A DNA stretch of 64,000 nt from a virus (Duplodnaviria > Caudoviricetes): positions 1 through 64,000 of the IMG/VR virus record IMGVR_UViG_3300032312_002284; one strand, given 5' to 3'. Below are positions 5,801-64,000 of this stretch, piece by piece; position 1 is the stretch's first letter, and the number at the start of each line of letters is the position of its first letter. The notes beneath the pieces are model-generated. The model worked only from the letters and a program-made list of their open reading frames with translations, was not told the origin of the DNA and searched no databases. Made by a program: the position numbers and the translations under genes.

Positions 5801-8204
5801 ACACAATCAAATTGTTAATAATAATTCAGCTGACCAATTCGGAGGAAGAATGTTTTTCCCGTCATGGTTTTTCCAACCTGGAACTGAGTTCCAACCATTT
5901 CAGACTGAATTAACTAAATATTATGGTAGTATGGATGCGAGTTTAATTAACGCATTTAATGTGATACCATGGGAAACATCGTCTACAAATTTAAATTCAC
6001 AACAGGTAATTCAAAATTCAGAAGGTTATCTTCTTGTGAAAATGCAAGGTCAAACATTACAATGTGAAGAAGATATGCAGGCAAGTACTGGATATGGATG
6101 TAATGCTTTTACTGCTCACTATGAATGGGAAGGTGATGATAAATGGGGATTTCCACCACAACCTAACGATAATGCACTTGTTAATGGTGTAGGTGAAAAT
6201 GGAGGGGCTACTTGGGGTGGGTCCGCATATATGTTACACTATTCTAGTGGTGATTTAATGGGCGATTCGGTTGATGGATGTTCTTTTATGTATATGCATT
6301 TTGGTGGAGATAATAATGAATGGAAGAAAAGTAGGTCAGTTTATTACTCACCATCTTATTTAAATGGTACACCTCCTGGAACCTATGGTAATTTTGGTAA
6401 AACTTTAATAGATAATCCTACAAATATTGTTTTTCGTTCAGACAGACTACCAACGTCTACTACCACCACTACCGCTCAACGTAACCATTTTTTATTTTTC
6501 CAAAATAGAAATTTCTCAGCATTTAGGATTTCTGATACAGGTGAAGTGTACGCTTCCTCAAGTAGTGTTGATGGTATTGAATTAGAAAACGTTTTATTTT
6601 CTGACGGTTCTACTTTAGGGTCGTTGAATGACCAAGTAGTTGCAAGTTTTAGCGAATGTGCAAGTGCGGTACCTTTGAAATGTTATAACATTACTAATGA
6701 TGGAGTTGTTGTAATTGATGATTTTCCTGACTGTACCACAGGACCATTAGGAATACCTTATTTTCAAAATGGTAAAGGATGTTATTCATTAGTTACTATA
6801 CCTATTATTGGTATTCCTTGGGATTTTTTCAGGATTAATGAATGGTATAAGAGAACAATAACAAGTTTGTTTTTATGTATGGAAGGTATTCAGTATCATT
6901 TCTTTAATAATTGGGTTAGTGGTAACCTATTTATGCCAACATTTTATAGTATTACTGAATTAAATGACGACGGGTTTCCTATCAGAAAATATTGTGAAGA
7001 TATTATTGTCTTTCATGAAGACTCAAAAAATTATTATTATAGAAGTAGTCCATATAGATACGGATATGGTTTTATAGGTGGCAGGACTCGACAAAGAAAT
7101 GAAATTGCGGGATTAAATAATTATGTAAGGGGGAACTATAGGAATTTAAAAACACCAACAACAATAATAAATTTAGGACCAATAACTAATTACACTCAAG
7201 AATTAGTTCAAGGTGTTGGATATTCAGGGTATATTGCAAATACATTAACACCATCAAGTTTTAGAGATATTACAGATATTGTTAATTTTTTTGTTGCATC
7301 AAGACAAATTGAAACTGCGTATGAACAGGCCGTAAACACATTTGTTGCGATAAGTTTGGCTTTAGTAAATCCTTCAGTACTTTTATTAGTTGGTGGAGGA
7401 GACCCCACCAAAAACTTTTTTGGAGATAGAAACTCAAGAGAGCCGGATAAAATAAATGCTGATTTAGCACAAATGATTTCAATTAATTCGGAATATGGTG
7501 TTAAACCTTTTAATCCTGCAGGATACCCTTCGGCAAACTCGATAAGAATAATACCAATATATAATCTCTTTGATATTAATGTATTGTTAACTGCATTGGC
7601 GTCAGGAGGTGTTGCGGCACTCTTAACACCGGCAAAATTCACGATAGGTATTTTCTTCCAAAGTGATAATGGTAAGAGAGATGCAATTAGTCCAAAAAGA
7701 ATTATATGGAATCAAAACGCTCAATTACCATTCCAACCAAATGATGTTACATTATATACTCAAGTAAGTCAATCTGTACCATTTTATCAATGGCAGACTG
7801 ATTATATGACAAGAGCCGAATTTATAGAATTACCGTTAGGGATTAATATTCCATATCCTTTGTTAGGACAAGAAGTTATTTTTGGCTCACATAAGAATGA
7901 TTGGTACACAGAACCAATAAATAGTAATACCACTACATTCTTCCAAAGAAATATACAGTACTTAGACAGGACCGAAAATACCTCAAGATATTTTATGGCG
8001 GAATCTAATCAAGCAAAATACATGAAAGGGTTTATTTATAATGTAGATAGTGATGGTAATTTAAGAGAAGATTTAGGTAATATAACTGAAGACAAATATA
8101 CAGTTGGTTCACCTTATCATTTTTATTTTGGATTAAAAAAAGGTAGAACTGCCGTAGATTTATTCTACATAAAATATGTTGATAGTGAAATTGTAATTGA
8201 ATAA
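2820..8204 (+). CDS. Large virion/baseplate-associated protein (1794 aa) with long hydrophobic segments
   Basis: Long ORF inside the baseplate operon; N-terminal beta-sandwich-like motif (ICGRVFANNGFGVPNVKISLF); a ~65-aa hydrophobic stretch at about 4371-4566 and further hydrophobic patches near the C-terminus. Confidence 0.6.
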   Translation: MNSSYRVRTQVGVDKSVQVDLQQDFETLEILSLKLYQRDIYTRVCSDYGVICGRVFANNGFGVPNVKISLFIPLSDEDSRNPEIANIYPFSNISNLDVNGYRYNLLPKEESHSGHVPTGSFPTREEILKEKNYSEVYDKYYKFTVKTNDSGDYMIFGVPVGSFTIFLDLDLSDIGQFSLNPQDLIRIGLATEGQVSGVKFNASTNLNSLPQIISLTKQVEVLPLWGNQEICQPSITRTDFDLTAEANIDLTPTAVFMGSIMSTIEEAKIDNNCKIDKKVGDFCSLVTGPGQILAIRQTINYDTDINSQTFGFPQLEKYNLQNDGYVIDENGAWLLEVPMNLDYIYTNEFGEQVISTDPTIGVPTKGKYRFKVKWNQSPSLSEQTRRAYFLVPNVKEWGWGEPGNTYNDDENPAFYPEYSTNDNYLRYQQSYAFSLDWYDYGDPTTSEGLGMIQDAINCEDRFYLFEFKKVYTVSQLMDKYKNGNKLRFIGIKNILNDDCSAENNKYPVNDAYRGSNIMFLLFRYILSVMKLLLFPLVVVMHAISLVLYIVNFILQIIVWLIYAPIYYFIAAVVAVVNFLAPGAPLNNPLKKTPAELSRIIWDKLRIKKIPLPLLLQSENECTFCECKEGEDSQEYTNSAAGTLLSELGNSCHFPLNDGGAVTPTLDIPGEQQQNFPQVIAGLPNSGGNCSARIPTSAYNSPWATGGLTYDDEREFLFSNNLTFAERINLSNTKQKYFRESTAIRTYVEPDLNGNQFHTDNVLVTLIQGCDDIYQPGALITFQDPSLSTDPNFELGINETADGLYQISGTSTSATSITVSYCTLDNNTLTGTKVYNLPLKDSDEYLTFARYRFDMEYFQVVTAITYSQFISLGNGSASDLSSHGTFYHRIFKTPMSVMFAKDTSGNQSQFEAEFKGTVFCNESSFSELANSKIVIMVRGVDPYSPKYKIKYDISRILNRGYGQVVVGGGEDVMFKLNIPVQPGGTSTGNKKRSVRHNQIVNNNSADQFGGRMFFPSWFFQPGTEFQPFQTELTKYYGSMDASLINAFNVIPWETSSTNLNSQQVIQNSEGYLLVKMQGQTLQCEEDMQASTGYGCNAFTAHYEWEGDDKWGFPPQPNDNALVNGVGENGGATWGGSAYMLHYSSGDLMGDSVDGCSFMYMHFGGDNNEWKKSRSVYYSPSYLNGTPPGTYGNFGKTLIDNPTNIVFRSDRLPTSTTTTTAQRNHFLFFQNRNFSAFRISDTGEVYASSSSVDGIELENVLFSDGSTLGSLNDQVVASFSECASAVPLKCYNITNDGVVVIDDFPDCTTGPLGIPYFQNGKGCYSLVTIPIIGIPWDFFRINEWYKRTITSLFLCMEGIQYHFFNNWVSGNLFMPTFYSITELNDDGFPIRKYCEDIIVFHEDSKNYYYRSSPYRYGYGFIGGRTRQRNEIAGLNNYVRGNYRNLKTPTTIINLGPITNYTQELVQGVGYSGYIANTLTPSSFRDITDIVNFFVASRQIETAYEQAVNTFVAISLALVNPSVLLLVGGGDPTKNFFGDRNSREPDKINADLAQMISINSEYGVKPFNPAGYPSANSIRIIPIYNLFDINVLLTALASGGVAALLTPAKFTIGIFFQSDNGKRDAISPKRIIWNQNAQLPFQPNDVTLYTQVSQSVPFYQWQTDYMTRAEFIELPLGINIPYPLLGQEVIFGSHKNDWYTEPINSNTTTFFQRNIQYLDRTENTSRYFMAESNQAKYMKGFIYNVDSDGNLREDLGNITEDKYTVGSPYHFYFGLKKGRTAVDLFYIKYVDSEIVIE

Positions 8205-9984
8205 CGATAATAAAATATCTATTGTCCTACCTACTGAAAGGTTTCAGGGGGCTCCTGAATTGGATAGTTATGTTGACATAAGTCTGCAATCTAAACAAAA
8301 AGAAATTATTGAGTATGACAGGAATTATAATCTTTTCTTAAATGATGTTTTTGATAAAGAGAGACAAGAGTCTACTAATTTTAATCTATCTTCAAAACTA
8401 TCCGTAATTTTTCAAAATACGTATACTGGTAAGACTAACTATACTCAATTTAGAAATAATCTTTATTATGTTAATGAAAAATATTACCAGCAATTGAGTT
8501 TCCAACCTAACTATGATGGATATTGGGGAGGGTACCCTGAGTTTAAAGAATTTGATTTAACGAGAAATGATTATAATGTAAGTGGTTATACTACATTTGG
8601 TACCCCTCACTTATCATTTCCCCAAAATAAAGCTGACATTTTAAATTGGTCTTTTTATATTTCTTATCCATATCAAAATAATTACACTAAGATTCTATCA
8701 AATTATAATAGTTATTATACTAATTGGGTTGTTGGAGATGGAATCCCATTTAAAACTTACTACTCACAAATTAATGGTGAAAATTTAATAACCTTTGAGT
8801 GTTTTGTCAAACATGGACTATCAGTTGGAGAAAATGTTCAACTATCGGTATCGTATACTAACCCATCAAATAATACTGTTACTAATATATTTGAAGTTTA
8901 TTTTTTAGGTAATGAAACAGTTGGGTCTGAGGAATATTATTTCTCAATTCAAAATATAGGATATCTAAATGGATTCTTAAATGCTGATACTATTGGTACG
9001 TTTAAAAGAGTTATTGACCCTGATAATTTAACTGAAACTACCTCAAAATATTATATTAGAGAACATATCATTTTAAATGATTATGAAAATTTAGTAATAA
9101 CTCCGGCAGGATTTGAAAGACAAATATTTTCTGATAATGGTAAATTTTTCCCAGCTGCTTTAACTACAAATAATTTAAATAAAGTGGCATTTAAAGAAGG
9201 TACCACAGTTTATAATTTGACAAATAAATTTAAAATTGATATTAATGGGATAAAAGATAATCAAAATAGACCATTAACTGAGTTATATTATACAATAATA
9301 AATAAAGGTTCGTTTGGGTGGTTTAATGAACCAGTTAATCAGGGTAATACTTCTCTTAAACAAGGATGGGAATTTAATATTGACTATGAAAATTTATCAC
9401 CCTATTGGAGAAGAAACCCAAATAATAGTAATTCCGACACTTCAATAACTGTTTCAAGTTATCAAAAAATTGATAACGGGAACACTTTTACATTTTATTA
9501 TAATGATAATCTAAATGTTGGTGATTTTTTAGATGGAGCGTTTTGTGAATGGAATGATTTCGAACAAAAAGAAAGAGAAATTTCTGAAATTTATCACAAA
9601 TTTGTTTTAAATCGAAACATTTTAATAGATGATAACGCAACAATTGCATCACAAATTAATCCAAAAGGTTATTATTATAAACCACATTATAAATTCACTC
9701 TTAGAGTTTTTTCTGATTATATTGAAACTGCTCCAATAACTGAAAATGTTGTTGATATTCCTAATTACGCGTTTTATTCGCAATCAGAACAAGAATATCG
9801 TTGGAGGGATTTGTATCCTTATGGGTATATTGATTCCAATAATGTTGGGGTTGATAATCCGTTTACAAATAATAGTCATTATGTACACAATAATTTTATA
9901 TTTAAAATTTTACCTGAGGGGTCAAATGTTGCGAACAATAACATAAACTTTATTAATCAACCAATATCTGATGACTGTGAATAA
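8197..9984 (+). CDS. Hypothetical structural protein (595 aa)
   Basis: Overlaps both neighbours in the operon; aromatic/Asn-rich. Confidence 0.6.
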   Translation: MNNDNKISIVLPTERFQGAPELDSYVDISLQSKQKEIIEYDRNYNLFLNDVFDKERQESTNFNLSSKLSVIFQNTYTGKTNYTQFRNNLYYVNEKYYQQLSFQPNYDGYWGGYPEFKEFDLTRNDYNVSGYTTFGTPHLSFPQNKADILNWSFYISYPYQNNYTKILSNYNSYYTNWVVGDGIPFKTYYSQINGENLITFECFVKHGLSVGENVQLSVSYTNPSNNTVTNIFEVYFLGNETVGSEEYYFSIQNIGYLNGFLNADTIGTFKRVIDPDNLTETTSKYYIREHIILNDYENLVITPAGFERQIFSDNGKFFPAALTTNNLNKVAFKEGTTVYNLTNKFKIDINGIKDNQNRPLTELYYTIINKGSFGWFNEPVNQGNTSLKQGWEFNIDYENLSPYWRRNPNNSNSDTSITVSSYQKIDNGNTFTFYYNDNLNVGDFLDGAFCEWNDFEQKEREISEIYHKFVLNRNILIDDNATIASQINPKGYYYKPHYKFTLRVFSDYIETAPITENVVDIPNYAFYSQSEQEYRWRDLYPYGYIDSNNVGVDNPFTNNSHYVHNNFIFKILPEGSNVANNNINFINQPISDDCE

Positions 9985-10768
9985 TTTTAAAATAAAACAA
10001 AATACAAACAATGAATATAAAATAGTATTTCCTGTTGAGACGGATAATACTTATTTAGGTTTAGATATGGGTGTTGAGGTCATTCAAAATGAGGTGGTTA
10101 ACGAAATAATTGGAACTCCTAAGAATTATGAAATTACAAGGTTTGAACCTAAACCAATTTCCCCATTTGGTTTTTACTCGGGGTCCAGTCTTAATTTTAA
10201 ATTTAATTTTTATAGCGGACCATTAAATGGATGGGTATTAAGTTACTCTCCAGTATTTGAATACCAACAAATTTATTACAATACAAATTCATTTTCAAAT
10301 TCTTTTTACAAGTTAGATTTTTATGACTCTCGTGAAAAAAAGAACCAAAAAATAGTTTTCACAGTAATAATACCTACACAACAAGGTGAAATAGTTTCAG
10401 AACAGATATTTCCAAGTTGGTATGCTAATAATGGGTTTGTTAATTTAAAGACACCATATCTAAAATTAGATTATTTAAAAGATAAAGAAGGTTATTTTAT
10501 TTATTTTTTATCAGACCCAAAACTATTAAATATTAATGAATTTTATACTAGTTTTAAATTTTTTGATGGTACTAAAGGAAATTTTAAAAGTTTTTTAACA
10601 ATTAACCCGTCAACATTTACTAATAATAATTTTAATCCTGATGAGTATTCTTTTTTAAAAGTTGTGTTAAACTATTCAGATTATACATACCAATACATAG
10701 ATAATAATAATAACCCAATAGGTAGTAACACAATACCAATAAATCTTTATGAATATGTTAACCCATAA
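9971..10768 (+). CDS. Hypothetical structural protein (265 aa)
   Basis: Translationally coupled ORF in the baseplate operon. Confidence 0.6.
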   Translation: MTVNNFKIKQNTNNEYKIVFPVETDNTYLGLDMGVEVIQNEVVNEIIGTPKNYEITRFEPKPISPFGFYSGSSLNFKFNFYSGPLNGWVLSYSPVFEYQQIYYNTNSFSNSFYKLDFYDSREKKNQKIVFTVIIPTQQGEIVSEQIFPSWYANNGFVNLKTPYLKLDYLKDKEGYFIYFLSDPKLLNINEFYTSFKFFDGTKGNFKSFLTINPSTFTNNNFNPDEYSFLKVVLNYSDYTYQYIDNNNNPIGSNTIPINLYEYVNP

Positions 10769-11868
10769 TGGAAACTCAATATTATAGATATAAAATCTCA
10801 CCTGAAGTTATTACTGGAGATGTTAGAACAGTTATTGTTGACAACGTTTCTTATGGTGTGATATCAGGTATGACTAATATTTTAAGTGGAGGGACTAACG
10901 GGGACTCGTTACTAACAGATTTAAGTTTACCAATTCCATTATTTCAAACTGGAATTGATTACGGTTATTACGATGGGTTTGATGGTGATTTATTACAAAA
11001 GGATGTTGTTACTAATTTTTTATTTACTCAAACCGATGGGTCATATAATGTAGAATTATTTAACACGTCTGAAATGGGTCAAAAAAAGTTACTATCAGAA
11101 TCTACATACCAAGTAGACTGGGGTGACGGTTCACCACTACAAACTATTTCTGTAGTTGCTCCAACACCTGTTTCTCATACCTATCTTTCAGTACCTTATA
11201 CATATACTATTAAATTAATTCAGAGAAATCCATGGGGTATAATTGAAGTTGGTAAAAAAATAACTGTTCCATATGAATTAATACCTAATAACAATCCTTA
11301 CGGAGAAGTTACATTTACCCCTCAGGGAGGGTCATGGTCAGATATTCCAGTTAGTTATGATTTTATTTTCAATGGGGATGCTGAAAATACAATTTCACAA
11401 CAAGTAAGTTCAAATTATGTTTCAGTACCATTTTATGTTACGGCAAATACAAAATCACAACTTTCAGAACTATCTCTTTACGGACCCCAAAAATATATAG
11501 TTAATCAACCTATATATTCAGGTGTGGGAGTAAACTCAATTTATAAAGGTGTTATTTTTGGAATTGACCCAAATGGGACATATACCGGATATACAATTAA
11601 TAATATTGACTACTATGATTTTAATGATGGTACCACAATTTCTTATGCTCAAAGTAGTGGATTAACATCTGAAATGTTGATTCAATCGGCAATTACAAAA
11701 AATGAGTACCTTTTAGGTGTAATTGACCAACCGGAAATTTACTCAAATGTATTTATTGAAAGAGGAAAAGATTCAGGTATTGAAACAACTCAAAGATTAG
11801 GGGAAGTACAAAATATGGGAGACTTGATTAAATACGGATATAAATTCTTCAAAATTAAACAATATTAA
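10768..11868 (+). CDS. Structural protein with a PKD-like Ig domain
   Basis: YQVDWGDGS...VSHTY is the PKD signature; TAATG coupling to the upstream gene. Confidence 0.6.
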   Translation: METQYYRYKISPEVITGDVRTVIVDNVSYGVISGMTNILSGGTNGDSLLTDLSLPIPLFQTGIDYGYYDGFDGDLLQKDVVTNFLFTQTDGSYNVELFNTSEMGQKKLLSESTYQVDWGDGSPLQTISVVAPTPVSHTYLSVPYTYTIKLIQRNPWGIIEVGKKITVPYELIPNNNPYGEVTFTPQGGSWSDIPVSYDFIFNGDAENTISQQVSSNYVSVPFYVTANTKSQLSELSLYGPQKYIVNQPIYSGVGVNSIYKGVIFGIDPNGTYTGYTINNIDYYDFNDGTTISYAQSSGLTSEMLIQSAITKNEYLLGVIDQPEIYSNVFIERGKDSGIETTQRLGEVQNMGDLIKYGYKFFKIKQY

Positions 11869-11870
11869 TT

Positions 11871-12779
11871 ATGGCAATAGGTTCATACGGTACAATACGA
11901 CCCTCAGATGTTTCACCAGCAGATGTTGAAATAATACTACATTATACTCCATCAAGAGATTATACTGAAAATTTTGTATTAAAAAAATTAGATTCCTCAA
12001 CATTACTAACCCCTTATTTTAATAATAGTAGTACAGGGGGAAATCCAAATGTTGAAATATTAGGAGGGTTGTACAATTTAAAACTACCATCAAATGAGTT
12101 TAATAAATTAGGAATTTATACTTTATACTTACGACCAGTTCAAATTAGAACTGAAATAAGTGATTGTGGAGTTCTATCCGCACTTCCAAATGTTAAAGGT
12201 ATTATTATTGATATTTCAAATGTTCCAAGCCAATATCGTAATAAATTTGTTACACAAGGATTAGTTGGATTTAGAGTCGAATATTTAAACACTGACGGTA
12301 CTAAAGTACCTAATTTTTTTAGATACATTACCTCAAGTTTTTACTGTGAACCTGTAACTCAAAATCTTACAACAACACAACAAAAAGTTGTTAGGTATAG
12401 ATATGTTGATAATGCGTCTAATTTAATGTTTTGTACATTAACACCGTCATCGGCACCAACAAATAAACCTAATGCGACACCATACATTGGAGTACCTGGA
12501 CAAAGTATTATAATTACTAATACTTTTTTTAATCCTGTTACTTTAGATGTAGAGATAGTCGAACATGATGCTTCGACATTAGCATTGGCTCTTTATGGTA
12601 ATCAAACTAAGTCAATGGATGATGGTATATACACTATCTATGACTCAAGTAATAATATATATAAACAATACAACTTATACGAAATCAGAGACCAATTTAA
12701 TGAACTTCTTTACGAGGTTAGACAAGATAGAGATGGTAATATCGATTTCAGTAAAAGTTATGACAATATAATCGCTTAA
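11871..12779 (+). CDS. Hypothetical structural protein (302 aa)
   Basis: Coupled ORF in the baseplate operon. Confidence 0.6.
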   Translation: MAIGSYGTIRPSDVSPADVEIILHYTPSRDYTENFVLKKLDSSTLLTPYFNNSSTGGNPNVEILGGLYNLKLPSNEFNKLGIYTLYLRPVQIRTEISDCGVLSALPNVKGIIIDISNVPSQYRNKFVTQGLVGFRVEYLNTDGTKVPNFFRYITSSFYCEPVTQNLTTTQQKVVRYRYVDNASNLMFCTLTPSSAPTNKPNATPYIGVPGQSIIITNTFFNPVTLDVEIVEHDASTLALALYGNQTKSMDDGIYTIYDSSNNIYKQYNLYEIRDQFNELLYEVRQDRDGNIDFSKSYDNIIA

Positions 12780-15700
12780 TGGCTGTAACAAAGTATACAT
12801 GTCCACCACAGACCGCCGCAGGTTCAGGGACCTTCTCCAATAATTTAGTTGGTTTCCAACTTGTACAGGGGGGTGGGTTTACGCAAGGTAATTTTCAATT
12901 TACAAATTCTATCACTGAAAAATCTAACAGAACTTTTGAAACTGGAGTTTTTTCAAGTCCGATATCTTTGGAAAGTATGAATACAACTCTTGGTCAAACA
13001 AGAGCCATCACATCTAACAATTTTGAAGTTTATCCAAATCTTGATTTAAGTGAAGTAACAAGTTTTACATTATACGGACCATTAAATAAACGATTTTCGG
13101 CATCAATTGAGCATATAGTTAATTATTTTCCAGCTGCTTTAGAAATCAGTCAAAACAGACCTGATTTCACCACAGGTATTACTGCTAATAATATAATTTT
13201 TGATACAACTGAAAATCTTACAGAGTTTGAAATTGATGTTGAATCAATTAGTAATCCATTTGGAATTGATTTTACCACCAACGCAACGGTTAATTTGTCA
13301 AGTAGGGAAATAAAAGTTTCAGATTTAAGAAATTTAACTGTAGAATTTTCAAATTATATTTTAGTATTTAACGGAGAAAATTACCAAATAAATAACATTA
13401 TACCAACAAGTTCATTAACTGCTGGAACATTAACTGTGTTTGTTGAAGGTAATCCATTTAACAATAATCCATTTACTTATGATTATTTAATTATAAGACC
13501 AAATGATGATGTAGTTAATAAAGTATTTAATTTAGAATTAGATTACGTTGATAATTTTATTTTAGATAGGTCAACAACTCCGATATATACGTCACAGTTT
13601 ACAGTACCATTAGAAAGTGATAGTGGTGATGTTTATAATTCTACTGATAAAATTACATGGCCATTATTTGGACAATGGAATTTAGATATTTTAACTGACT
13701 CGTTTACAGTTTATTTAGAAAAATTAAATGAAATTGCAGAAAATTTTGATAGTTATAAAACTAATTTAATTGCGAGATTTTTAATTACTGATTCTTTAAT
13801 TGAATTTGACACCCCTGACCAAAAATTAGATAAAGTTTTAAAAATTTATGGAAGAAGTTTTGATGAAACAAGAGTGTTTATTGACGCTCTTGCAAATATG
13901 ACTTCAGTAAATTACAACATTGGGAATGACATTCCATCTCAACTATTAAAAAATTTAGCGCAAACTTTAGGGTGGAATACGGATATATCACCAATAACAA
14001 ATGATAATTTTTTAGACTCTTTATTTACAACTAATCCAACACCTCTTTTTGATGGTATAAGTTCAAATCCAACACCTGATGAATTAAATTATCAATATTT
14101 TAGAAATTTGATAATGAATTCCGCTTATCTTTTTAAATCTAAAGGTACTAGAAAATCCATAGAAAGTTTATTAAGATTAATAGGTGCTCCTGATGCAATA
14201 GTTGAATTTAATGAAACAGTATACGTTGCGGACCAAAAAATTAATATTAGCGAGTTCAATCAAAGATATGAATTAATTGCCGGAGGTTCGTACATACAGG
14301 AATCTGTGGTCTTGAATCCAAACTCAACATACTCAATTCAAGGAAATATATATACCGCGTTTACCCTAACTAATACTGTAATAGAAACTGATACTACAAG
14401 AACTGATTATCCTGTGGATGAACAAGGATTTCCTTCTATGGTAAATGCAAGTGAGAGTTATTATTTTCAAATAGGTGCTGGTTGGTTTGAATCTACACCT
14501 GTTCATAGAAGTTCTGAAATAATAAATTACACTACAAGTGTTTTTACCGGACAAAATTTTAATGTACAAACAGAATTGTCTCCATTTACATATGGTTACC
14601 CATATCTACAAAGATATATGGATTTTCCATATTTAAATTTTGGATTTGGATTACAAAAAATTAATGACAATAAAAAAAGTTGGGTATCGACTGACAAATC
14701 TAGACTAAATTCCGACGCGGGATTTAATTCTGATTATTATGTTGGTGATGATAGATTAGTACTTAACGTTAAAAATGTTGACTTATATTTAAATCCGGCA
14801 CAAGGATTATTATACGATGTTTGGTATATTTCTCAAACTTCAAATTTCCCAATACCAAGTACGGGATTACCAAATTTTTCATCTCAAAATTACTTAAATG
14901 GTTTTAATTTAGGTAATTGTAACTACAGCGCTGGAACAAGTGTTAATGGGTTAGTTTATTGTGGATTCCAATTTGACAAAACTGTAATTAATCCTAAACC
15001 TCAGAAAAAAACATTTTTTGAATTTGCTCAAGATTTCATCAAAAACATGATAAATGTTAGAGATAGATTGTTCATAACTGACGGTAAAACGGGAGGATAT
15101 CCAAAATTACAATCAATATTTTGGCAATATCTTTTATCTAATCAAGCTGTTAATATCCCAACAAACCAATTTTCATATCAGAATTTAATTGAATACGTTG
15201 AAGGGTTGGGAGATTATTGGATTAGACTAATTGAACAAATGGTTCCTGCAACAACAATATGGAATACAGGGGTTAAATTAGAAAATTCAGTCTTTCATAG
15301 ACAAAAATATGTTTATAGAAGACAACAAGGTTGTGAAATTATACCAATCCCATGTGAAACTTGTAATGCGACAGGACCTTTATTTTCATATGATTGTAAT
15401 TATGAAACGATTAGTTGTCCAATTTATCCTTGGGATAGTGGGTTAACCTCAGTTCCGTCATTTGGTGATGTGTTATATCAGACCTTAAACAATTACTTAT
15501 CTGAAATTGGATTGACATTTACAGATTGTGATTTAAATAGTTTATATAGTGTATGGTATGTGGATATTAATATTGGAGGAAATCAATTAATACAACAACC
15601 TTTCTTTGATGGGTACGGATTAACGGGTTCGCAGGCGTACCCAACACAAGGTCAATGGGTTGTTGCTCTTAACAATTATTTACCTCAATTAAACAATTTT

Positions 15701-31026: not shown

Positions 31027-31086
31027 TTATTGGTTTTCTATTTACCAAAAATATTCTTAAATTATTTTTTTAAAAAAAAATTAATT

Positions 31087-31977
31087 ATGAATATAATTTT
31101 ACAAATTAATGGTGGGTTAGGTAAATGTATTGTAGCCACCGCAATAACAGAAATAATTAAAAAAAAATATCCTAATTCTAAACTTATTGTTGTCTCAGGA
31201 TATCCTGATGTTTTCTTAAATAATCCTTATGTTGACCGAGCGTTTAATTTTGGTGAACATTCTTATTTTTATTCTGATTATATTGAAGATAAAGAATTTA
31301 AACTTTTGGCTCATGACCCATATCTTGAGACTAACCATATTAATAAAACAGAACATTTAATTGAAACTTGGTGTAAATTATTTGATTTGGAATATAATGG
31401 GGAACTACCAAACATATATCTAACTGAAAGAGAGATTAATTTCTTTTCAAGAAAATATACAACTGATAAACCAATCATGGTTATTCAAACTAATGGAGGG
31501 GTTGAACAAAATTTAAAATATTCATGGGCTCGAGATATTCCGTCACATATCGTTGAAAATGTGATTGAAAAATTTAAATATGGTTATACTATTTTTCATT
31601 TAAAAAGAGAAGACCAAATGTCATTTTCTAATACAATCCCTGTAACTGATACTTTTAGGTCAATTGCCACTTTGATTGCTATAAGTGATAAAAGATTTTT
31701 CATGGATAGTTTTGGACAACATGTTGCAGGGGCTTTAAAGTTAGAATCAACAGTTTTGTGGGTTGTAAATTCACCAAAAGTTTTTGGATATGAGACAAAT
31801 AAGAACATAACTTCTAAACCTTTCACAAAGAAAGCAGAATTAAAAATGTCGTATATTAATAAATTTAATATACAAGGGGAACCTTTGGAATTCCCATACA
31901 ATAGTGAATTTGAAATGTTCGATATTGATGACGTAATAAATTCTTTGAGTAATAATGAATATACCAATACCAAATAA
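31087..31977 (+). CDS. Glycosyltransferase, GT9 / heptosyltransferase-like (GT-B fold)
   Basis: NGGLGKCIVATAITEIIKKKYPNSKLIVV...VFLNNPYVD and LIAISDKRFFMDSFGQHVAGAL match the GT9 GLGD..., P.A.I and DSG..H.A.A motifs; start moved to the ATG at 31087. Confidence 0.75.
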   Translation: MNIILQINGGLGKCIVATAITEIIKKKYPNSKLIVVSGYPDVFLNNPYVDRAFNFGEHSYFYSDYIEDKEFKLLAHDPYLETNHINKTEHLIETWCKLFDLEYNGELPNIYLTEREINFFSRKYTTDKPIMVIQTNGGVEQNLKYSWARDIPSHIVENVIEKFKYGYTIFHLKREDQMSFSNTIPVTDTFRSIATLIAISDKRFFMDSFGQHVAGALKLESTVLWVVNSPKVFGYETNKNITSKPFTKKAELKMSYINKFNIQGEPLEFPYNSEFEMFDIDDVINSLSNNEYTNTK

Positions 31978-32341
31978 AATAGAAGTTAAATCATCCCCAA
32001 TCCATGGGTTTGGTGTCTTTGCAACCGAAAAGATTTTAAAAAACGAGATAATTGAAACTTGTTATTCAATTTTCTTCAAAACCAATTTGGGTTATAATGA
32101 TGATATATTATTAAAATATCGTTTCTCATATCCTTGTGGTTCGGCTCCAATAAAGTATGCAATACCCTTAGGATACGGATGTATCTATAATCATAGTGAT
32201 GATAATAATGCGACATGGACGTGTGATTCAGACAATGGTATGTATTATTTCATTGCTGTAAGAGACATTGAACCAGGTGAAGAAATTTGTACATCATATG
32301 GAAAAAAAGAATATTGGGAATCAGTAAAAAAAATATATTAA
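31955..32341 (+). CDS. SET-domain methyltransferase
   Basis: SPIHGFGVFATEKI...IYNHSDDNNA...AVRDIEPGEEICTSYG (GxG, NHS and GEExxxxY motifs). Confidence 0.9.
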   Translation: MNIPIPNKIEVKSSPIHGFGVFATEKILKNEIIETCYSIFFKTNLGYNDDILLKYRFSYPCGSAPIKYAIPLGYGCIYNHSDDNNATWTCDSDNGMYYFIAVRDIEPGEEICTSYGKKEYWESVKKIY

Positions 32342-32343
32342 AA

Positions 32344-33168
32344 ATGGAAAAATTATTTTTTCAGAGTTCACTACCACGAGCAGGTAGTACTCTACTACAA
32401 AACATTTTAGCTCAAAATCCTAACATATACGCAACACCGACAAGTGGTGTTTTAGAATTAGTGTACGCAGCTAGAGCAAACTATAGTAATTCACCTGAAT
32501 TTAAAGCTCAGGACCCTGAACTTATGAAAAATGGATTTTTATCTTTTTGTAGAGAAGGATTGAAAGGTTTTTATGAAGGTGTAACTGATAAAAAGTATGT
32601 GATTGATAAAAGTAGAGGATGGGGAGTCCATTATGGATTTTTACAACAAATTGTTGATAAACCAAAAGTTGTTTGTATGGTGAGAGACCTTAGAGATATC
32701 TATACCTCTATGGAAAAAAACTTTAGAAAAAATCAACACAAAGATTTTGGGATTGTAAATCATTCTGATTTAACAGGTACATCAACACCTAAAAGAATAG
32801 ATATTTGGGCAAATTCCCAACCAGTTGGAATGGCAATTGAAAGACTTCAAGAAATTTTTAGACAGGGTATTAATGAAAATATTATGTTTGTTAAGTATGA
32901 AGATTTATGTTTGTATCCCGATTTAATCATGAGAAAAATTTATGAATATTTTGAAATACCTTATTTTGAACATGATTTTGAAAACATTGAACAAATAACA
33001 AAAGAAGATGATGAAGTGTATGGTATTTTTGGAGACCATAAGATAAAAAAGACTTTGGAGTTGTTACCGTCAGATTCACAAAAAATTTTAGGGCCGGATG
33101 TGTGTGATTGGATTTATAATAATTATGGGTGGTATAATGAAATTTTTAAGTACCCTAAAAATATATGA
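32344..33168 (+). CDS. PAPS-dependent sulfotransferase
   Basis: 5'-PSB loop LPRAGSTLL, DKSR, 3'-PB MVRDLRDIYTS, VKYEDL; start moved to the ATG at 32344. Confidence 0.88.
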   Translation: MEKLFFQSSLPRAGSTLLQNILAQNPNIYATPTSGVLELVYAARANYSNSPEFKAQDPELMKNGFLSFCREGLKGFYEGVTDKKYVIDKSRGWGVHYGFLQQIVDKPKVVCMVRDLRDIYTSMEKNFRKNQHKDFGIVNHSDLTGTSTPKRIDIWANSQPVGMAIERLQEIFRQGINENIMFVKYEDLCLYPDLIMRKIYEYFEIPYFEHDFENIEQITKEDDEVYGIFGDHKIKKTLELLPSDSQKILGPDVCDWIYNNYGWYNEIFKYPKNI

Positions 33169-33214
33169 TTAATTTATATATTAACAAAGTAATAGGAACG
33201 GTATTTATATTTGA

Positions 33215-60480: not shown

Positions 60481-61407
60481 ATGGAGAATTATTATAGTGC
60501 TTTAGGGGTGTCAGAAAATGCGACACAGGAAGAAATAAAAAAAGCGTACAAAAAACTTGCTGTACAACATCATCCTGATAAAGGAGGTAATGAGGAAACG
60601 TTTAAAAAAATTTCAGAAGCGTACGACACTTTAGGAAACCCGGAAAAAAAACAACAATATGATTTACAGAAAAATAATCAATTTGGTGGTGGAGATGGGT
60701 TTGACCCATTTAGTATGTTCTCAAACATGTTTAATAACATGGGAGGTGGACAAAGAAAGAATCCAGATAAAGTTGTTAATTTAAAAGTTGGTGTTTTTGA
60801 GGCTTATAGAGGGGGAAGAAAATCTGTATCATACATGAGAAATGACAAGTGTGATGTTTGTTATGGTACAGGTGGAGATAAAGAGACTTGTAAACCATGT
60901 CAAGGACATGGGTACTTCACTCAGAGAGTAGGGAATGGATTTTTTCAAACAATTCAAAGAAGTACATGCCAGGCTTGTAATGGGAAAGGGTTTAGATATA
61001 CTAAAGCGTGTTATTCATGTAATGGTAGTACAAACATGGTAAAAATGCAAAACATCGATATTGAATTACCTAGAGGTGTTGATGATGGTACATTCTTCAA
61101 ATCACATGGAGGTGGAGATTATTTAAATGGTTCTTATGGTGATTTATTATTTAAAGTTGAAGTTGTTTCTGAAAATAATTTTGATAAAGTAGGTGCTGAT
61201 TTAGTATATAATTATGACTTTACTGTTGATAGTCTTAATGATGAAAAAATAAATATACCTCATCCTGACGGGAGTTTACAAATTGATTTCCCAAATGACT
61301 TGGAAACAAAAAAACCTTTACGTGTTAAAGGTAAAGGTTTTTACAGAGACGGAAGTGATTTGTACGTAAAATTTAATTTCAAACACAAGAAGTTAAAAGA
61401 ATGTTAA
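60481..61407 (+). CDS. dnaJ: DnaJ (Hsp40) co-chaperone, type I
   Basis: J-domain with HPD; G/F region; four CxxCxGxG repeats; C-terminal substrate-binding domain. Confidence 0.95.
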
Positions 61408-61595: not shown

Positions 61596-61763
61596 ATGGC
61601 ATCAATAAGCGCAAATACTGAATATTTAATTTGTATCGAGTGTTCTGGTACGACTGTCTCAACAAGAACAACACCACATCCAACCTATTCTGATTTAACA
61701 GGGGGAACTGTGACACAATTAAATGCGGTGTTGATTGGTGGAAGAAACGGACTTAATTCTTAG
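61596..61763 (+). CDS. Small putative virion protein (55 aa)
   Basis: Not in the track; MASISANTEYLICIEC...QLNAVLIGGRNGLNS; overlapping TATTTAT motifs at 61574-61584. Confidence 0.6.
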   Translation: MASISANTEYLICIECSGTTVSTRTTPHPTYSDLTGGTVTQLNAVLIGGRNGLNS

Positions 61764-62148
61764 ATTCTGGAACTACAAGATACATCCAAGCGTAATCGTT
61801 ATATTCTATTATTATAAATAACACTCCTGTAATTTCAGAAGGTCCCATATAGAAGTTACAACTATTCCCATTAGAATCTTGCATTCGGTATTGAGCAACA
61901 TTATTTTGTTCTGCAAGTTTACCAACAACATAATAATCTTGTTGAGATTTACTGAAAATAGTAACTTTGGAATCCGTAAGTTTAATTAGAATGTCACAAT
62001 CATTTATTGTTCCGTTCCATACAATTTCATTTGTACTAAAGTCACGGTAACCAATATTAAATGTTCGGGCTCTCGCGTACTCAATGTCTTGAGAAAAAGA
62101 AATGATTGATGTGAATAAGAAAAGAATTGATAAGATAAAGTTTTTCAT
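61753..62148 (-). CDS. Secreted/exported hypothetical protein
   Basis: Signal peptide MKNFILSILFLFTSIISFS-Q; own host-type promoter. Confidence 0.7.
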   Translation of the reverse strand: MKNFILSILFLFTSIISFSQDIEYARARTFNIGYRDFSTNEIVWNGTINDCDILIKLTDSKVTIFSKSQQDYYVVGKLAEQNNVAQYRMQDSNGNSCNFYMGPSEITGVLFIIIEYNDYAWMYLVVPESKN

Positions 62149-62216: not shown

Positions 62217-62660
62217 TTATTTACGTTTAATTTTAACGTATCTGTACCACAATCTTTCATGAAGAAAATAAATTACAGGTTTAAGAAGTAACTCACCAAT
62301 ACCTAATAAAGAAGACATTTCTAATGATACTCCACAGGAAAGTGCAACCAATACTGTAGTTAAGGTACCAAGTAATCTATAAGAAATAGTTTTTAAAATA
62401 TGACGAAGAATAACAGTTTCTTCCTTTACTGTTTTAACATAAGCAATGTTATCGACCACATTACAATGACCTTCACAACTGATGTGCCATTTATAATCAT
62501 TTAATTCAGGCATCCAATCCTTTGTTGTGAAAGTATGACCATCAATGATAATGTCAGAAACTAATATTTCATTACCATCTTCAATTAATCTCCATCTATC
62601 ATTTTCAGATGTTGATACGGTATTAAATCTGATTTGAAATTTTTTGATTTTGTTTTTCAT
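62217..62660 (-). CDS. DUF2061 membrane-domain protein with an extra N-terminal domain
   Basis: RHILKTISYRLLGTLTT...YFLHERLW matches DUF2061. Confidence 0.75.
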   Translation of the reverse strand: MKNKIKKFQIRFNTVSTSENDRWRLIEDGNEILVSDIIIDGHTFTTKDWMPELNDYKWHISCEGHCNVVDNIAYVKTVKEETVILRHILKTISYRLLGTLTTVLVALSCGVSLEMSSLLGIGELLLKPVIYFLHERLWYRYVKIKRK

Positions 62661-63055
62661 AGTTTTCCTTGAGCTCTTAATTCTTCTCTTATCTTTGTTG
62701 CTGAAATATCGTGTATTTCTTGTGGTGGAATTCTTTCAATGATATTATAACCAACACCTCGTCCAAATTCAATAGAACAAATATCAGGAATAACCATAAC
62801 TTTTATCTTGTTACCCATATCAGAATAATGTTCTTCAATATTTTTTTTAACTTCTTCGGCACTATATGGATTTTTTTCATCAGGTTGAATATCTCTGATA
62901 CAAATTAAAACGTTTTTACCTTCATCTAAAGCCTGTTGAAATAAAGATTGATGACCTTTATGTAAAGGTTGCCATCTACCAACAAACATTGCATATTGAC
63001 CATCTTTTGCAGGTAGTGATGATTCTACGTGAATTTTTTTATCCCAAGTACTCAT
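62657..63055 (-). CDS. HIGH-superfamily nucleotidyltransferase (cytidylyltransferase-like)
   Basis: MFVGRWQPLHKGH (HxGH) and ISATKIR (KMSKS-equivalent); start moved to the ATG at 63055, overlapping the cysC stop (ATGA). Confidence 0.85.
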   Translation of the reverse strand: MSTWDKKIHVESSLPAKDGQYAMFVGRWQPLHKGHQSLFQQALDEGKNVLICIRDIQPDEKNPYSAEEVKKNIEEHYSDMGNKIKVMVIPDICSIEFGRGVGYNIIERIPPQEIHDISATKIREELRAQGKL

Positions 63056-63480
63056 TTTTTGTTGAAAGGTATTAAATGAAGACATTCATCTATTGTTTTA
63101 TTTGTGGTATCAATATCTATAAAGTTTTCAGTAGGTTGTTCATACTCTTTAACAAAGTTTTGTTCTCTACCTCTAATTTCACTTGTATGAACATAGATTT
63201 CAACAACCTTATTTGTTTTCTTTAATGAGTCCCTCATTTCTTTGTAAGGAGCCACAACAGAAATTACAACTGTAAATCCCTTGTGGTCTAAAAAACGAGC
63301 CAAATCAACAACAGATTGGATATTCTTAATTCTACCTTCAGGTGAATAATCAAAGTTTTGAAATAACTCCCTCAAACCATCTCCATCAACATTAATACAA
63401 TTATCTGAACACTTTTCAATTAATGCATTTGCCAATGTTGTTTTTCCAGCACCTGGCTGACCTGTAAACCAATAAATCAT
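63052..63480 (-). CDS. cysC: Adenylylsulfate (APS) kinase
   Basis: IYWFTGQPGAGKTT P-loop; VDGDGLR; DYSPEGRIKN; VVAPY..MR; YEQP. Confidence 0.9.
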   Translation of the reverse strand: MIYWFTGQPGAGKTTLANALIEKCSDNCINVDGDGLRELFQNFDYSPEGRIKNIQSVVDLARFLDHKGFTVVISVVAPYKEMRDSLKKTNKVVEIYVHTSEIRGREQNFVKEYEQPTENFIDIDTTNKTIDECLHLIPFNKK

Positions 63481-63559: not shown

Positions 63560-64000
63560 TTACCAACAAGTAATTATAACTAATCCGTCACCTCCTCTTC
63601 CACCGGAGCCACCTGTAATTCCGGCACCACCACCTCCTCCACCACAACCTCGACCTGCATTCCCTCCTCTTCCACCTGATTGACCTGCAGTATTATTACT
63701 ACCACCACCTGTTCCTCCTAATGAAATAAATGGTTTTAAAAGGAGTTGTCCGTCAATTCCGTTACCACCACCTGCAGTACCCCCTGAAACGCTAGGGACA
63801 AATCCTGCACCAATGATACCACCTCCTACTCCGGTGGTATTACCTGTGGTTATTCCTGCCCCACCTCTACCTTCGCCAAGTATAGATGAACCTGTTCCAT
63901 ATATACCGTTTAAAGCGGTCCCTGATGCATTACCATTACCACCTGAAACTCCATCTCTTGTTGTTAGTATACCTAAAGACCCAATAGTGTAATTGCGTGT
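63560..64000 (-). CDS. Partial glycine-rich fibre-type protein (C-terminus; runs off the window end)
   Basis: Not in the track; open frame ending ...GGRGGNAGRGCGGGGGGAGITGGSGGRGGDGLVIITCW*, a GG.G.V.I.W ending typical of Gly-rich virion domains. Confidence 0.75.
   Translation of the reverse strand, partial: TRNYTIGSLGILTTRDGVSGGNGNASGTALNGIYGTGSSILGEGRGGAGITTGNTTGVGGGIIGAGFVPSVSGGTAGGGNGIDGQLLLKPFISLGGTGGGSNNTAGQSGGRGGNAGRGCGGGGGGAGITGGSGGRGGDGLVIITCW

Follow-up and report, generated by a model that had tools for sequence, protein, structure and literature searches.

What is the purpose of three short genes that lie head to tail on the minus strand near the end of a giant-phage DNA stretch of 64,000 nucleotides (the window)? 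They encode a short-lid APS kinase of 142 aa (63052..63480), a 132-aa nucleotidyltransferase with HxGH and ISxTxxR motifs (NT, 62657..63055) and a 147-aa DUF2061 protein (62217..62660), and a first-pass annotation had suggested that together they could make PAPS for a sulfotransferase encoded 30 kb away.

A coupled gene trio with a short-lid kinase

At 63052-63055 and at 62657-62660 the plus strand has tcat, so that the coding strand reads ATGA; the overlaps described in the first-pass annotation are thus confirmed at both junctions within the trio. The trio also lies directly downstream of a Gly-rich gene, as had been claimed; this gene occupies contig positions 63560 to 64459, with a gap of 79 nt separating it from the kinase, and two PF21722 Gly_rich_2 paralogues come after it on the upstream side of the trio. 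A scan for promoters and terminators gave scores no better than those of shuffled sequences. We evaluated synteny in 80 related viral loci, with denominators of 79 for the kinase, 77 for DUF2061 and 55 for the sulfotransferase. An APS kinase is found on the same strand and at most 900 nt upstream of NT in 77/79 loci, and DUF2061 at most 700 nt downstream in 63/77. Because the layout recurs in this way it is not a chance arrangement, and the sequence data support reading the trio as one module, conserved and coupled in translation.

The kinase matches PF01583 (APS_kinase; E 5e-19, 69.3 bits with a cut-off of 21.1), and the solved structures closest to it are the APS kinases 7yq0 (E 6e-19) and 8a8h. 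It keeps the P-loop, DGD, R37, R50 and N53; G7..G12-K13, D32-G33-D34, R37 and R50 are invariant in short and canonical APS kinases, and hence the Walker A motif, the DGD and the two phosphosulfate-binding arginines of an APS kinase are all present. The name cysC needs one reservation: the protein is a short form that lacks ~18 residues of the lid of canonical CysC (KGLYKK...NFTG) and falls below the cut-off of the NCBIfam CysC equivalog TIGR00455 (77.9 bits against 138.7). Its identity to the short kinases found next to DUF2061-CysD-CysN in Bacteroidota genomes (L112, L129, L134) is 51-53%, and since the same short form accompanies CysDN there, the phage protein is probably still an APS kinase.

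The product of the third gene matches PF09834 over residues 88-138 (E 3.2e-12, 47.1 bits, cut-off 23.1). Its model has strands within residues 6-77 and helices at 81-108 and 113-143, giving an N-terminal beta domain of ~77 aa followed by a predicted two-helix membrane hairpin. An Atlas search with the 77-aa N-domain returned no usable match, a fold search with the whole model returned only generic helical hairpins, and we found no function for DUF2061 in the literature.

Ancestry of the small nucleotidyltransferase

NT starts at ATG 63055 and ends at 62657; a longer 142-aa ORF from 63085 is unused by homologues, which are 131-136 aa long and span 93% of it. Matches to PF01467 (CTP_transf_like; E 2.4e-7, 31.5 bits, cut-off 21) and TIGR00125 (38.7 bits, cut-off 27.7), the motifs GRWQPLHKGH and ISATKIR and a Rossmann-like fold in the predicted structure (pLDDT 91) place it in the HIGH/cytidylyltransferase-like superfamily. 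The family signature is GRWQPxHxGH, IRD, KNP, GRGVGY and ISATxIR. In the family alignment R27, H32, H35, S118, T120 and R123 show little or no variation, and G34 is conserved, as are the family-specific R54, N62 and R99. We found no publication on this family.

The proposal that NT is a stripped-down Sat does not hold as a statement of descent. The match to PF01747 (Sat) is below threshold and confined to residues 39-63 (17.4 bits, cut-off 24.3, E 0.0031); the scores in G000 and five relatives are 11.9-17.9 bits. Alignment of the NT family (A1) to Sat (A5) using hhalign gave a probability of 15% over the C-terminal ISxTxxR motif only, where the Sat tail LSGTKLR resembles ISATKIR. NT lacks the Sat motifs QxRNPxHxxH and GRDHAG (FQTRNPMHRSH and VGRDHAG in A5) and has GRWQPLHKGH and GRGVGY, and 132 residues leave no room for the PUA-like N-domain of Sat.

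The fold comparison of NT with Sat, NadM and TagD that the first-pass annotation had called for ranks NMNAT, NadM and PPAT first (Z 9.7-8.8; NMNAT 1f9a 9.7, PPAT 9.5), ahead of ATP sulfurylases (Z 7.6-5.2; 1v47 7.6) and of TagD-like and cytidylyltransferase folds (Z 6.7-7.3), with NMNAT, PPAT, CCT and TagD folds together spanning Z 9.7-6.7; all of these matches are within the range of the shared minimal fold, and Foldseek/VIA-align leaves Sat-like, NMNAT-like and PPAT-like unseparated, the best Sat lying within ~2 Z units. The likeness to archaeal NMNAT/NadM (M. jannaschii 1f9a, M. thermautotrophicus 1ej2, Francisella NadM 2qjt) extends to GRxQPxHxGH, NPF(T/S) and ISxTxxR, with fold Z of 9.7 and 9.4 and a profile E of 6e-14. 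By sequence and fold, NT is derived from archaeal NMNAT/NadM and not from Sat.

These matches, together with the fact that JGI names some NT relatives NMNAT, could be taken to mean that NT serves NAD salvage as an NMN adenylyltransferase, in the way that large phages use NadM or NatV, a reading that we regard as very improbable. NT lies far below the NMNAT equivalog cut-offs (28.7 bits against 181.2 for TIGR01527; 34.8 against 127 for NF002243), and its alignment to 1f9a, 2qjt and 4yp7 covers only residues ~13-84 (~80 columns with Foldseek). Beyond residue ~84 the NMN-binding segment is missing, the ~35 residues that follow strand 4 in NMNAT/NadM being replaced by the short GRGVGY loop, and NT has IRD in place of IGS. 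Neither NadV nor Nudix accompanies it; its invariant partners, APS kinase and DUF2061, stand together with the sulfotransferase where NAD genes would be expected for NMNAT/NadM. Searches with A1 found only NadM-like partial matches in ORFs of 332-416 aa among 401 sampled Pseudomonadota genomes and no match at E <= 1e-18 among 401 sampled Bacteroidota genomes; G010, the positive control, scored 1.6e-53. An analogy with PPAT and dephospho-CoA kinase, the end steps of CoA synthesis, was rejected, as the kinase matches APS kinase and not CoaE and the partners are sulfotransferases.

Genomic partners of the nucleotidyltransferase

Several lines of evidence connect NT with sulfate activation. Among the best 150 50%-cluster representatives of the NT family, 36 are fusions to APS kinase, and these occur in both orders (27 APSK-NT and 9 NT-APSK); in several of them (P0160, P0197, P0206, P0222 and P0241) the kinase part is canonical and complete, KGLYKK...NFTG lid included. 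NT is also paired with a sulfotransferase or APS kinase in independent contexts (L179, L181, L189, L093 and archaeal L180), of which L189 is a Wzm/Wzt polysaccharide cluster, while in L180 NT follows the kinase and glycan genes are not near. The arrangement recalls the two-step logic of PAPS synthases and Sat-CysC fusions such as human PAPSS1 (1x6v) and Aquifex aeolicus Sat/APS kinase (2gks), in which an adenylyltransferase of the HIGH superfamily is coupled or fused to APS kinase, again in either order; both structures are among the fold matches of NT (Z 5.7 and 6.1, respectively). Unlike these, the phage NT part is only 132 aa, lacks the PUA-like domain and comes from NMNAT rather than PF01747, the kinase lid is shortened, and a DUF2061 membrane protein belongs to the module.

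A cellular counterpart is provided by the Bacteroidota operon CysQ-DUF2061-CysC-CysD-CysN (L099, L103, L134 and ~50 other loci), in which DUF2061 is likewise beside or fused with APS kinase. CysC is found at most 800 nt after DUF2061 in 52 of 67 Bacteroidota loci, CysD in 55 and CysN in 57; CysQ is usually adjacent, and DUF2061 is fused to CysC in L099 and L144. In L134, a short kinase 51% identical to that of the window is followed by DUF2061 and then by CysD-CysN, with no NT, amid cellular neighbours (RelA/SpoT, Fur, PurA, SHMT). Whereas the heterodimeric, GTPase-coupled CysDN (~720 aa) provides the sulfurylase step in the bacterial operon, the phage has the 132-aa NT and no CysQ. This comparison supports the notion that NT takes the place of CysDN beside the same short kinase and DUF2061, and suggests DUF2061 as a proposed membrane partner of the PAPS-making enzymes.

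Canonical sulfurylases were sought on the viral side. CysD, CysN and CysQ had no match in the 80 viral loci or the 86-kb contig, and neither CysD nor Sat was found in two 99-100% complete relatives of 294-297 kb. PF01507 is absent from G000 and these two relatives, and in the same three PF01747 has no match over its cut-off, the sub-threshold matches being NT itself only. The fusions, the displacement of CysDN and the lack of CysD or Sat support the idea that NT occupies the slot where an ATP sulfurylase is needed. The best explanation would be that NT is a functional analogue of CysDN and Sat while belonging to neither family.

An alternative starts from the likely hosts. Because these are Bacteroidota, which have CysDN, the host could supply APS and NT could act otherwise: the phage kinase would boost PAPS while NT activates another small phosphorylated compound of the same glycan pathway in the manner of TagD, for example a sugar phosphate or glycerol phosphate, the link to the kinase being shared glycan modification. 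NT is indeed TagD-sized, its fold matches include the TagD-like and cytidylyltransferase folds noted above, cassettes lie among glycosyltransferases, methyltransferases and carbamoyltransferases, and a second PF01467 gene is found near the L069 cassette. Such a role leaves unexplained, however, why NT is fused specifically to APS kinase and in both orders, why it follows the kinase away from glycan genes in archaeal L180, and why CysDN stands in its place beside kinase and DUF2061 in L134. We therefore rate this alternative as unlikely, though more probable than the other rival readings.

The sulfotransferase and a proposed route to PAPS

The proposed PAPS consumer is a plus-strand gene at 32344..33168, whose ORF opens at TTG 32287 and whose homologues align from ATG 32344. 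Its product matches PF13469 (E 1e-17, 65.5 bits) and PF00685 (E 5.6e-12, 46 bits) and has a weak match to tyrosylprotein sulfotransferase. The sulfotransferase motifs are present as a 5'-PSB-like PRAGSTL and a 3'-PB-like RDLRDIYTS, which align with PRSGTTL and RDGRASVHS of TPST1. The 30 kb that separate this gene from the trio in the window are bridged in its closest relatives: in L012-L015 an orthologue of the sulfotransferase (72-73% aa and 75% nt identity) lies directly upstream of the kinase, and the sulfotransferase block of the window is 75% identical at the nucleotide level to the trio-adjoining block in L012. The link drawn in the first-pass annotation is thus upheld by synteny.

Across the wider sample the association is looser. 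Of 55 viral loci, 31 have a sulfotransferase within 3 kb, but the other 24 have no recognisable one within 10 kb. None was found in two half-complete relatives. In the cultured phages Salvo and DLP_6 the fusions are distant (33-38% identity) and lie amid DNA-metabolism genes, and neither whole genome has a match to Sulfotransfer_3. Co-occurrence, which the first-pass annotation had made a test of its proposal, is therefore only partial, and these loci and phages go some way towards the independence from sulfotransferases that would count against it.

Another possibility is that the kinase-NT pair makes a PAPS-like donor that does not contain sulfate, with NT joining an NMP to some other small anion and the kinase adding a 3'-phosphate. 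A comparable case is the phosphoramidate pathway of Campylobacter jejuni, which uses the cytidylyltransferase Cj1416 and the CysC-like kinase Cj1415. The divergent, short-lid kinase, below NCBIfam cut-offs, and the Salvo and DLP_6 fusions would fit such a donor. However, short kinases of this type also accompany CysDN and DUF2061 in a cellular operon for sulfate activation, many fusions have a fully canonical APS kinase, and the partner transferases match sulfotransferase families and carry PAPS-binding motifs; we consider a non-sulfate donor improbable.

The probable acceptor is suggested by the neighbouring genes. The plus-strand gene at 31030..31977 encodes a homologue, 39% identical, of the 292-aa protein of a cassette (L007:8839-9717), and most sulfotransferase-bearing cassettes have the gene for this protein next to the sulfotransferase or the trio. 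The product of 31030..31977 has no Pfam match; in the Atlas the L007 protein adjoins viral clusters, and in one of these (TM 0.82) PF01075 Glyco_transf_9 is carried by 45% of the members. It is probably a GT9-like glycosyltransferase, and would make or extend the glycan to be sulfated. No PAPS-reductase-family gene was found, which favours sulfation over sulfur assimilation, consistent with the earlier claim that this cysC is not a sulfur-assimilation gene; the virion, which the first-pass annotation took to be the target, would be one candidate site of such sulfation.

We think it reasonably probable, judging from gene content and synteny, that the trio is a compact phage module for PAPS synthesis, supplying the sulfotransferase and glycan-decorating set of the phage itself rather than sulfur assimilation. 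In such a module NT would hold ATP through HxGH and ISxTxxR, and sulfate would attack the alpha-phosphate to give APS and PPi, a Sat-type reaction carried out in a minimal NMNAT-derived core in which the NMN-binding segment has become the short GRGVGY loop. The short-lid kinase, an APS kinase by family, would then phosphorylate the 3'-OH of APS, and this reaction (APS + ATP -> PAPS) would pull the unfavourable first step. Conserved adjacency and the bacterial fusions suggest that the DUF2061 protein joins the kinase at the membrane. Finally, the 32344-33168 sulfotransferase, linked by synteny, would use PAPS, probably on a glycan from the neighbouring glycosyltransferases.

To our knowledge ATP sulfurylase exists in two forms, Sat and CysDN. 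It seems to us slightly better than an even call that the family of 130-140 aa with the pattern GRWQPxHxGH...GRGVGY...ISATxIR constitutes a third and minimal class of ATP sulfurylase, derived from NMNAT, spread for the most part by large phages and scattered among cells in archaea and in bacterial polysaccharide clusters; that no smaller self-contained PAPS factory is known than the one it forms with a short-lid kinase, frequently joined by a small HAD phosphatase and DUF2061; and that in Bacteroidota, too, DUF2061 is a hitherto unrecognised membrane component of sulfate activation. If so, a form of 132 residues would clearly be a non-orthologous replacement in one of the central reactions of sulfur metabolism, the scoring of sulfate activation in genomes and viromes would change, and DUF2061 would gain its first functional context. 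Viral cysC, usually counted as an auxiliary gene of sulfur assimilation, would instead be seen as belonging to a sulfation system for the decoration of glycans, and a mini PAPS synthase of ~270 aa would be a handy tool for enzymatic sulfation.

A dedicated sulfate activation of this kind is known from rhizobia, where NodPQ, which are homologues of CysDN/CysC, and NodH serve the sulfation of Nod factors. The phage cassettes would share with the Nod clusters a private PAPS supply beside a sulfotransferase and glycan-decorating enzymes, and the L069 variant, like Nod clusters, also has carbamoyltransferases and methyltransferases; they differ in that the element is a phage and in that the proposed sulfurylase step is not orthologous to NodPQ. 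The NT gene itself is currently annotated as 'cytidyltransferase-like', 'NMNAT' or 'FAD synthase'.

Gene content and conservation of the cassette

The source record spans 86 kb (30% G+C, CheckV completeness 29%), and the window covers its first 64 kb; its relatives are phage contigs of 175–320 kb from freshwater and other metagenomes. Three minus-strand genes occupy 63480-62217: an APS-kinase-family protein of 142 aa (63480-63052; PF01583, E 5e-19), a 132-aa HxGH/ISxTxxR nucleotidyltransferase (NT, 63055-62657) and a 147-aa protein with DUF2061 as its C-terminal 52 residues (62660-62217). The NT start was set at ATG 63055 because its homologues are 131–136 aa long. Each junction is an ATGA overlap, and 79 nt upstream of the trio begin three tandem Gly-rich paralogues of 287–299 aa on the same strand (window 63560-64000 and contig 64472-66232; L010:1561-4233), two of which match PF21722 (Gly_rich_2). 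Open reading frames, profiles and junctions thus agree with the layout described in the first-pass annotation: kinase, NT and DUF2061 genes joined by ATGA overlaps with a Gly-rich gene upstream. In relatives L019 and L016 the Gly-rich position is taken by a sulfotransferase and an 87-aa gene. Downstream of DUF2061, a 131-aa protein (61753-62148, minus) whose N-terminus resembles a signal peptide stands where a 292-aa GT9-like gene would be; L019 and L072 have both. A full-length DnaJ (J domain, CxxCxGxG zinc finger and C-terminal domain; 60481-61407, plus) is conserved and adjoins the cassette in relatives.

We fetched 80 viral loci with NTs 61–98% identical to that of the window and located partner genes by tblastn. 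Within 900 nt upstream of the NT, 77 of the 79 loci with enough flank have an APS kinase on the same strand, separated from it by either 0–70 nt or about 350–430 nt; DUF2061 follows the NT within 700 nt in 63/77. A small HAD gene fills the gap in both long-gap loci examined. Its 112–123-aa product (L069:9620-9991, L023:9661-10001) weakly matches the HAD_PNKP 3'-phosphatase domain and Hydrolase_3, and could be a PAP 3'-phosphatase standing in for CysQ or a pyrophosphatase pulling the sulfurylase step. This gene is missing from the window's cassette; in a cellular genome a HAD-type phosphatase is fused to a short kinase (L134:5164-5964). The phage DUF2061 proteins also carry a highly conserved extra 77-aa all-beta domain (residues 1–80; window 62420-62660, minus) with invariant R11, N13, W23-R24-L25, K57 and H59, which had no match in Pfam or the Atlas and forms an ORF of its own in some relatives (e.g. 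L001:8393-8626).

We searched 1.84 billion proteins; among the best 150 of the 50%-identity cluster representatives, the NT is fused to APS kinase in the order kinase-NT in 27 and NT-kinase in nine. In several fusions the kinase is fully canonical and has the KGLYKK...NFTG lid. That both orders occur argues that the two proteins perform consecutive steps.

Descent of the nucleotidyltransferase

The first-pass annotation had proposed that the NT could be a stripped-down ATP sulfurylase; descent from Sat is not borne out by our data. Searches of NCBIfam and PDB profiles placed it nearest archaeal NMNAT/NadM (1f9a, E 6e-14), with the match limited to residues 13–84 and a score far under every NCBIfam equivalog cut-off. 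Its AlphaFold model is confident (pLDDT 91), and Foldseek matched the model to NMNAT, NadM and PPAT over about 80 aligned columns. In structural comparison of the NT with NadM and Sat, VIA-align Z scores were higher for NMNAT (9.7), PPAT (9.5), NadM (9.4 and 8.8) and NadR (8.3 and 8.0) than for the ATP sulfurylases, of which Thermus 1v47 reached 7.6 and other Sat structures 6.1–5.2. The Sat profile PF01747 scored 17.4 bits, short of its 24.3-bit cut-off, and hhalign of the NT family with our Sat alignment gave 15% probability, confined to the ISxTxxR / LSGTKLR tail. By profile, fold and alignment, therefore, the NT derives from NMNAT, with loss of the NMN-binding segment, and is not a cut-down Sat. 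The fold comparison cannot decide its substrate, as NMNAT-, PPAT- and Sat-type structures all match.

An alignment of 58 family members yields the signature F-[IV]-G-R-W-Q-P-x-H-x-G-H, I-R-D, (E/D)-K-N-P, G-R-G-V-G-Y and I-S-A-T-x-I-R. The ATP-handling residues are intact, and the conserved family-specific polar positions R54, N62 and R99 would suit a small anionic second substrate. The family comprises 1293 cluster representatives at E <= 0.001 (513 at 1e-10), and over 5000 90%-clusters lie near the query. Evenly sampled genomes of Pseudomonadota (401) and Bacteroidota (401) yielded no true member, by a method whose positive control scored 1.6e-53; in these samples the family is essentially viral, with scattered cellular members. 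Our literature search found no publication describing it. Some NT gene calls (P0124, P0127 and P0133; 320–326 aa) are fused at the N-terminus to a domain of ~190 aa resembling HNH-type homing endonucleases, probably because an endonuclease was inserted immediately ahead of the NT.

Sulfotransferases and the proposed use of PAPS

A sulfotransferase gene lies at 32344-33168 on the plus strand, opposite to the trio, following a gene for a 315-aa protein without Pfam match and one for a 128-aa SET-domain protein (31955-32341, plus; PF00856, E 1.2e-14). Its PRAGSTL and RDLRDIYTS motifs line up with the tyrosylprotein sulfotransferase 5'-PSB and 3'-PB motifs, so the enzyme should bind a 3'-phosphorylated adenosine donor. 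In the trio's closest relatives (L012-L015, 85–89% nucleotide identity), a block with the 292-aa homologue and the sulfotransferase sits directly upstream of the kinase and is 74–75% identical to window 31040-33174. The same five-gene set is thus present here in two parts separated by 30 kb, and synteny supports the suggested link between the trio and the distant sulfotransferase. The 292-aa protein, which accompanies the cassette, adjoins viral clusters in the Atlas, in one of which 45% of members carry Glyco_transf_9. The GT9-like gene, SET gene and sulfotransferase are conserved as a whole in L012 and L015, with the SET gene between the other two.

The expected co-occurrence with sulfotransferases held in part: of the 55 loci flanked by 3 kb or more on each side, 31 have one within 3 kb, but in 24 none was seen within 10 kb. 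The association recurs in independent contexts. In L179 an NT adjoins a sulfotransferase and sugar-modifying genes; in L181 a sulfotransferase and kinase are separated from the NT by two small genes; L189, a polysaccharide cluster of Wzm/Wzt type, combines a short kinase and NT with glycosyltransferases and a sulfotransferase; the 328-kb phage L093 encodes DUF2061, a kinase-NT fusion and two sulfotransferases; and on the archaeal contig L180 an APS kinase gene comes after the NT. A cassette variant, L069, combines FkbM methyltransferase, FKBP, kinase, HAD, NT and two carbamoyltransferases; in its 99% complete genome the sole sulfotransferase match is a marginal Sulfotransfer_1 230 kb away (23 bits, cut-off 22), and none was found in two half-complete relatives. 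The L069 decoration genes (8176-8727 and 10483-14773: FkbM methyltransferase, FKBP isomerase, glucosaminidase and two NodU/CmcH-type carbamoyltransferases) recall Nod-factor tailoring. The cultured phages Xylella Salvo (gp32, L097) and Stenotrophomonas DLP_6 (AAY80_227, L200) encode kinase-NT fusions of 243–248 aa (33–38% NT identity) beside DNA-metabolism genes (MazG-like, topoisomerase, ligase) and an annotated cysteine dioxygenase; neither whole genome has a Sulfotransfer_3 match. Such cases may reflect other uses of PAPS, unrecognised sulfotransferases or a different chemistry. Being cultured, both phages are tractable systems for the kinase-NT pair.

The first-pass annotation also suggested that the PAPS would serve virion modification, through the sulfotransferase, rather than sulfur assimilation. 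No PAPS-reductase-family gene (PF01507) was found in the window's contig and five relatives (two of them 99–100% complete, at 294 and 297 kb), which argues for sulfation over assimilation. We read the trio as very probably a module that supplies PAPS for phage sulfation; virion modification would be a hypothetical purpose.

The proposed sulfurylase step and Bacteroidota operons

No CysD, CysN or CysQ was found in the 80 viral loci or the 86-kb contig, and PF01747 never exceeded its cut-off in that contig and the five relatives, where the NT gave the only sub-threshold matches. DUF2061, a family for which no function is described, regularly forms part of the Bacteroidota CysQ-DUF2061-CysC-CysD-CysN operon: in 67 Bacteroidota loci with enough downstream flank it is followed by CysC within 800 nt in 52, CysD in 55 and CysN in 57, and CysQ usually adjoins. 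It is fused to the CysC N-terminus in Chitinophaga (L099, 5983-6819) and Roseivirga (L144, 5986-6840). A kinase of the window's short-lid type, with about 18 lid residues deleted relative to canonical CysC, occurs in L112, L129 and L134 (51–53% identity). DUF2061 and CysD come next in all three, then CysN in L129 and L134; L112 ends past CysD. The neighbours in L134 are plainly cellular (RelA/SpoT, Fur, PurA, LptD-like, SHMT), and this locus lacks the NT. Phage and L134-type bacteria thus share the short kinase and DUF2061, whereas the NT stands in the phage where CysDN stands in the bacteria. We consider the NT the best candidate for the module's ATP-sulfurylase step, as an NMNAT-derived analogue and not a reduced Sat, at somewhat better than even odds. 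Bacteroidota are suggested as hosts because DUF2061 and the short kinase have Bacteroidota affinity and because cassette contigs were binned into MAGs of Flavobacteriaceae, Chitinophagaceae and Bacteroides (L100, L101, L114). These likely hosts have CysDN, so the phage has no strict need for its own sulfurylase, which counts against this reading of the NT. Across L099, L144, L103 (5773-6213) and about 50 further Bacteroidota loci with this operon, DUF2061 occurs as a tandem double domain or fused to CysC.
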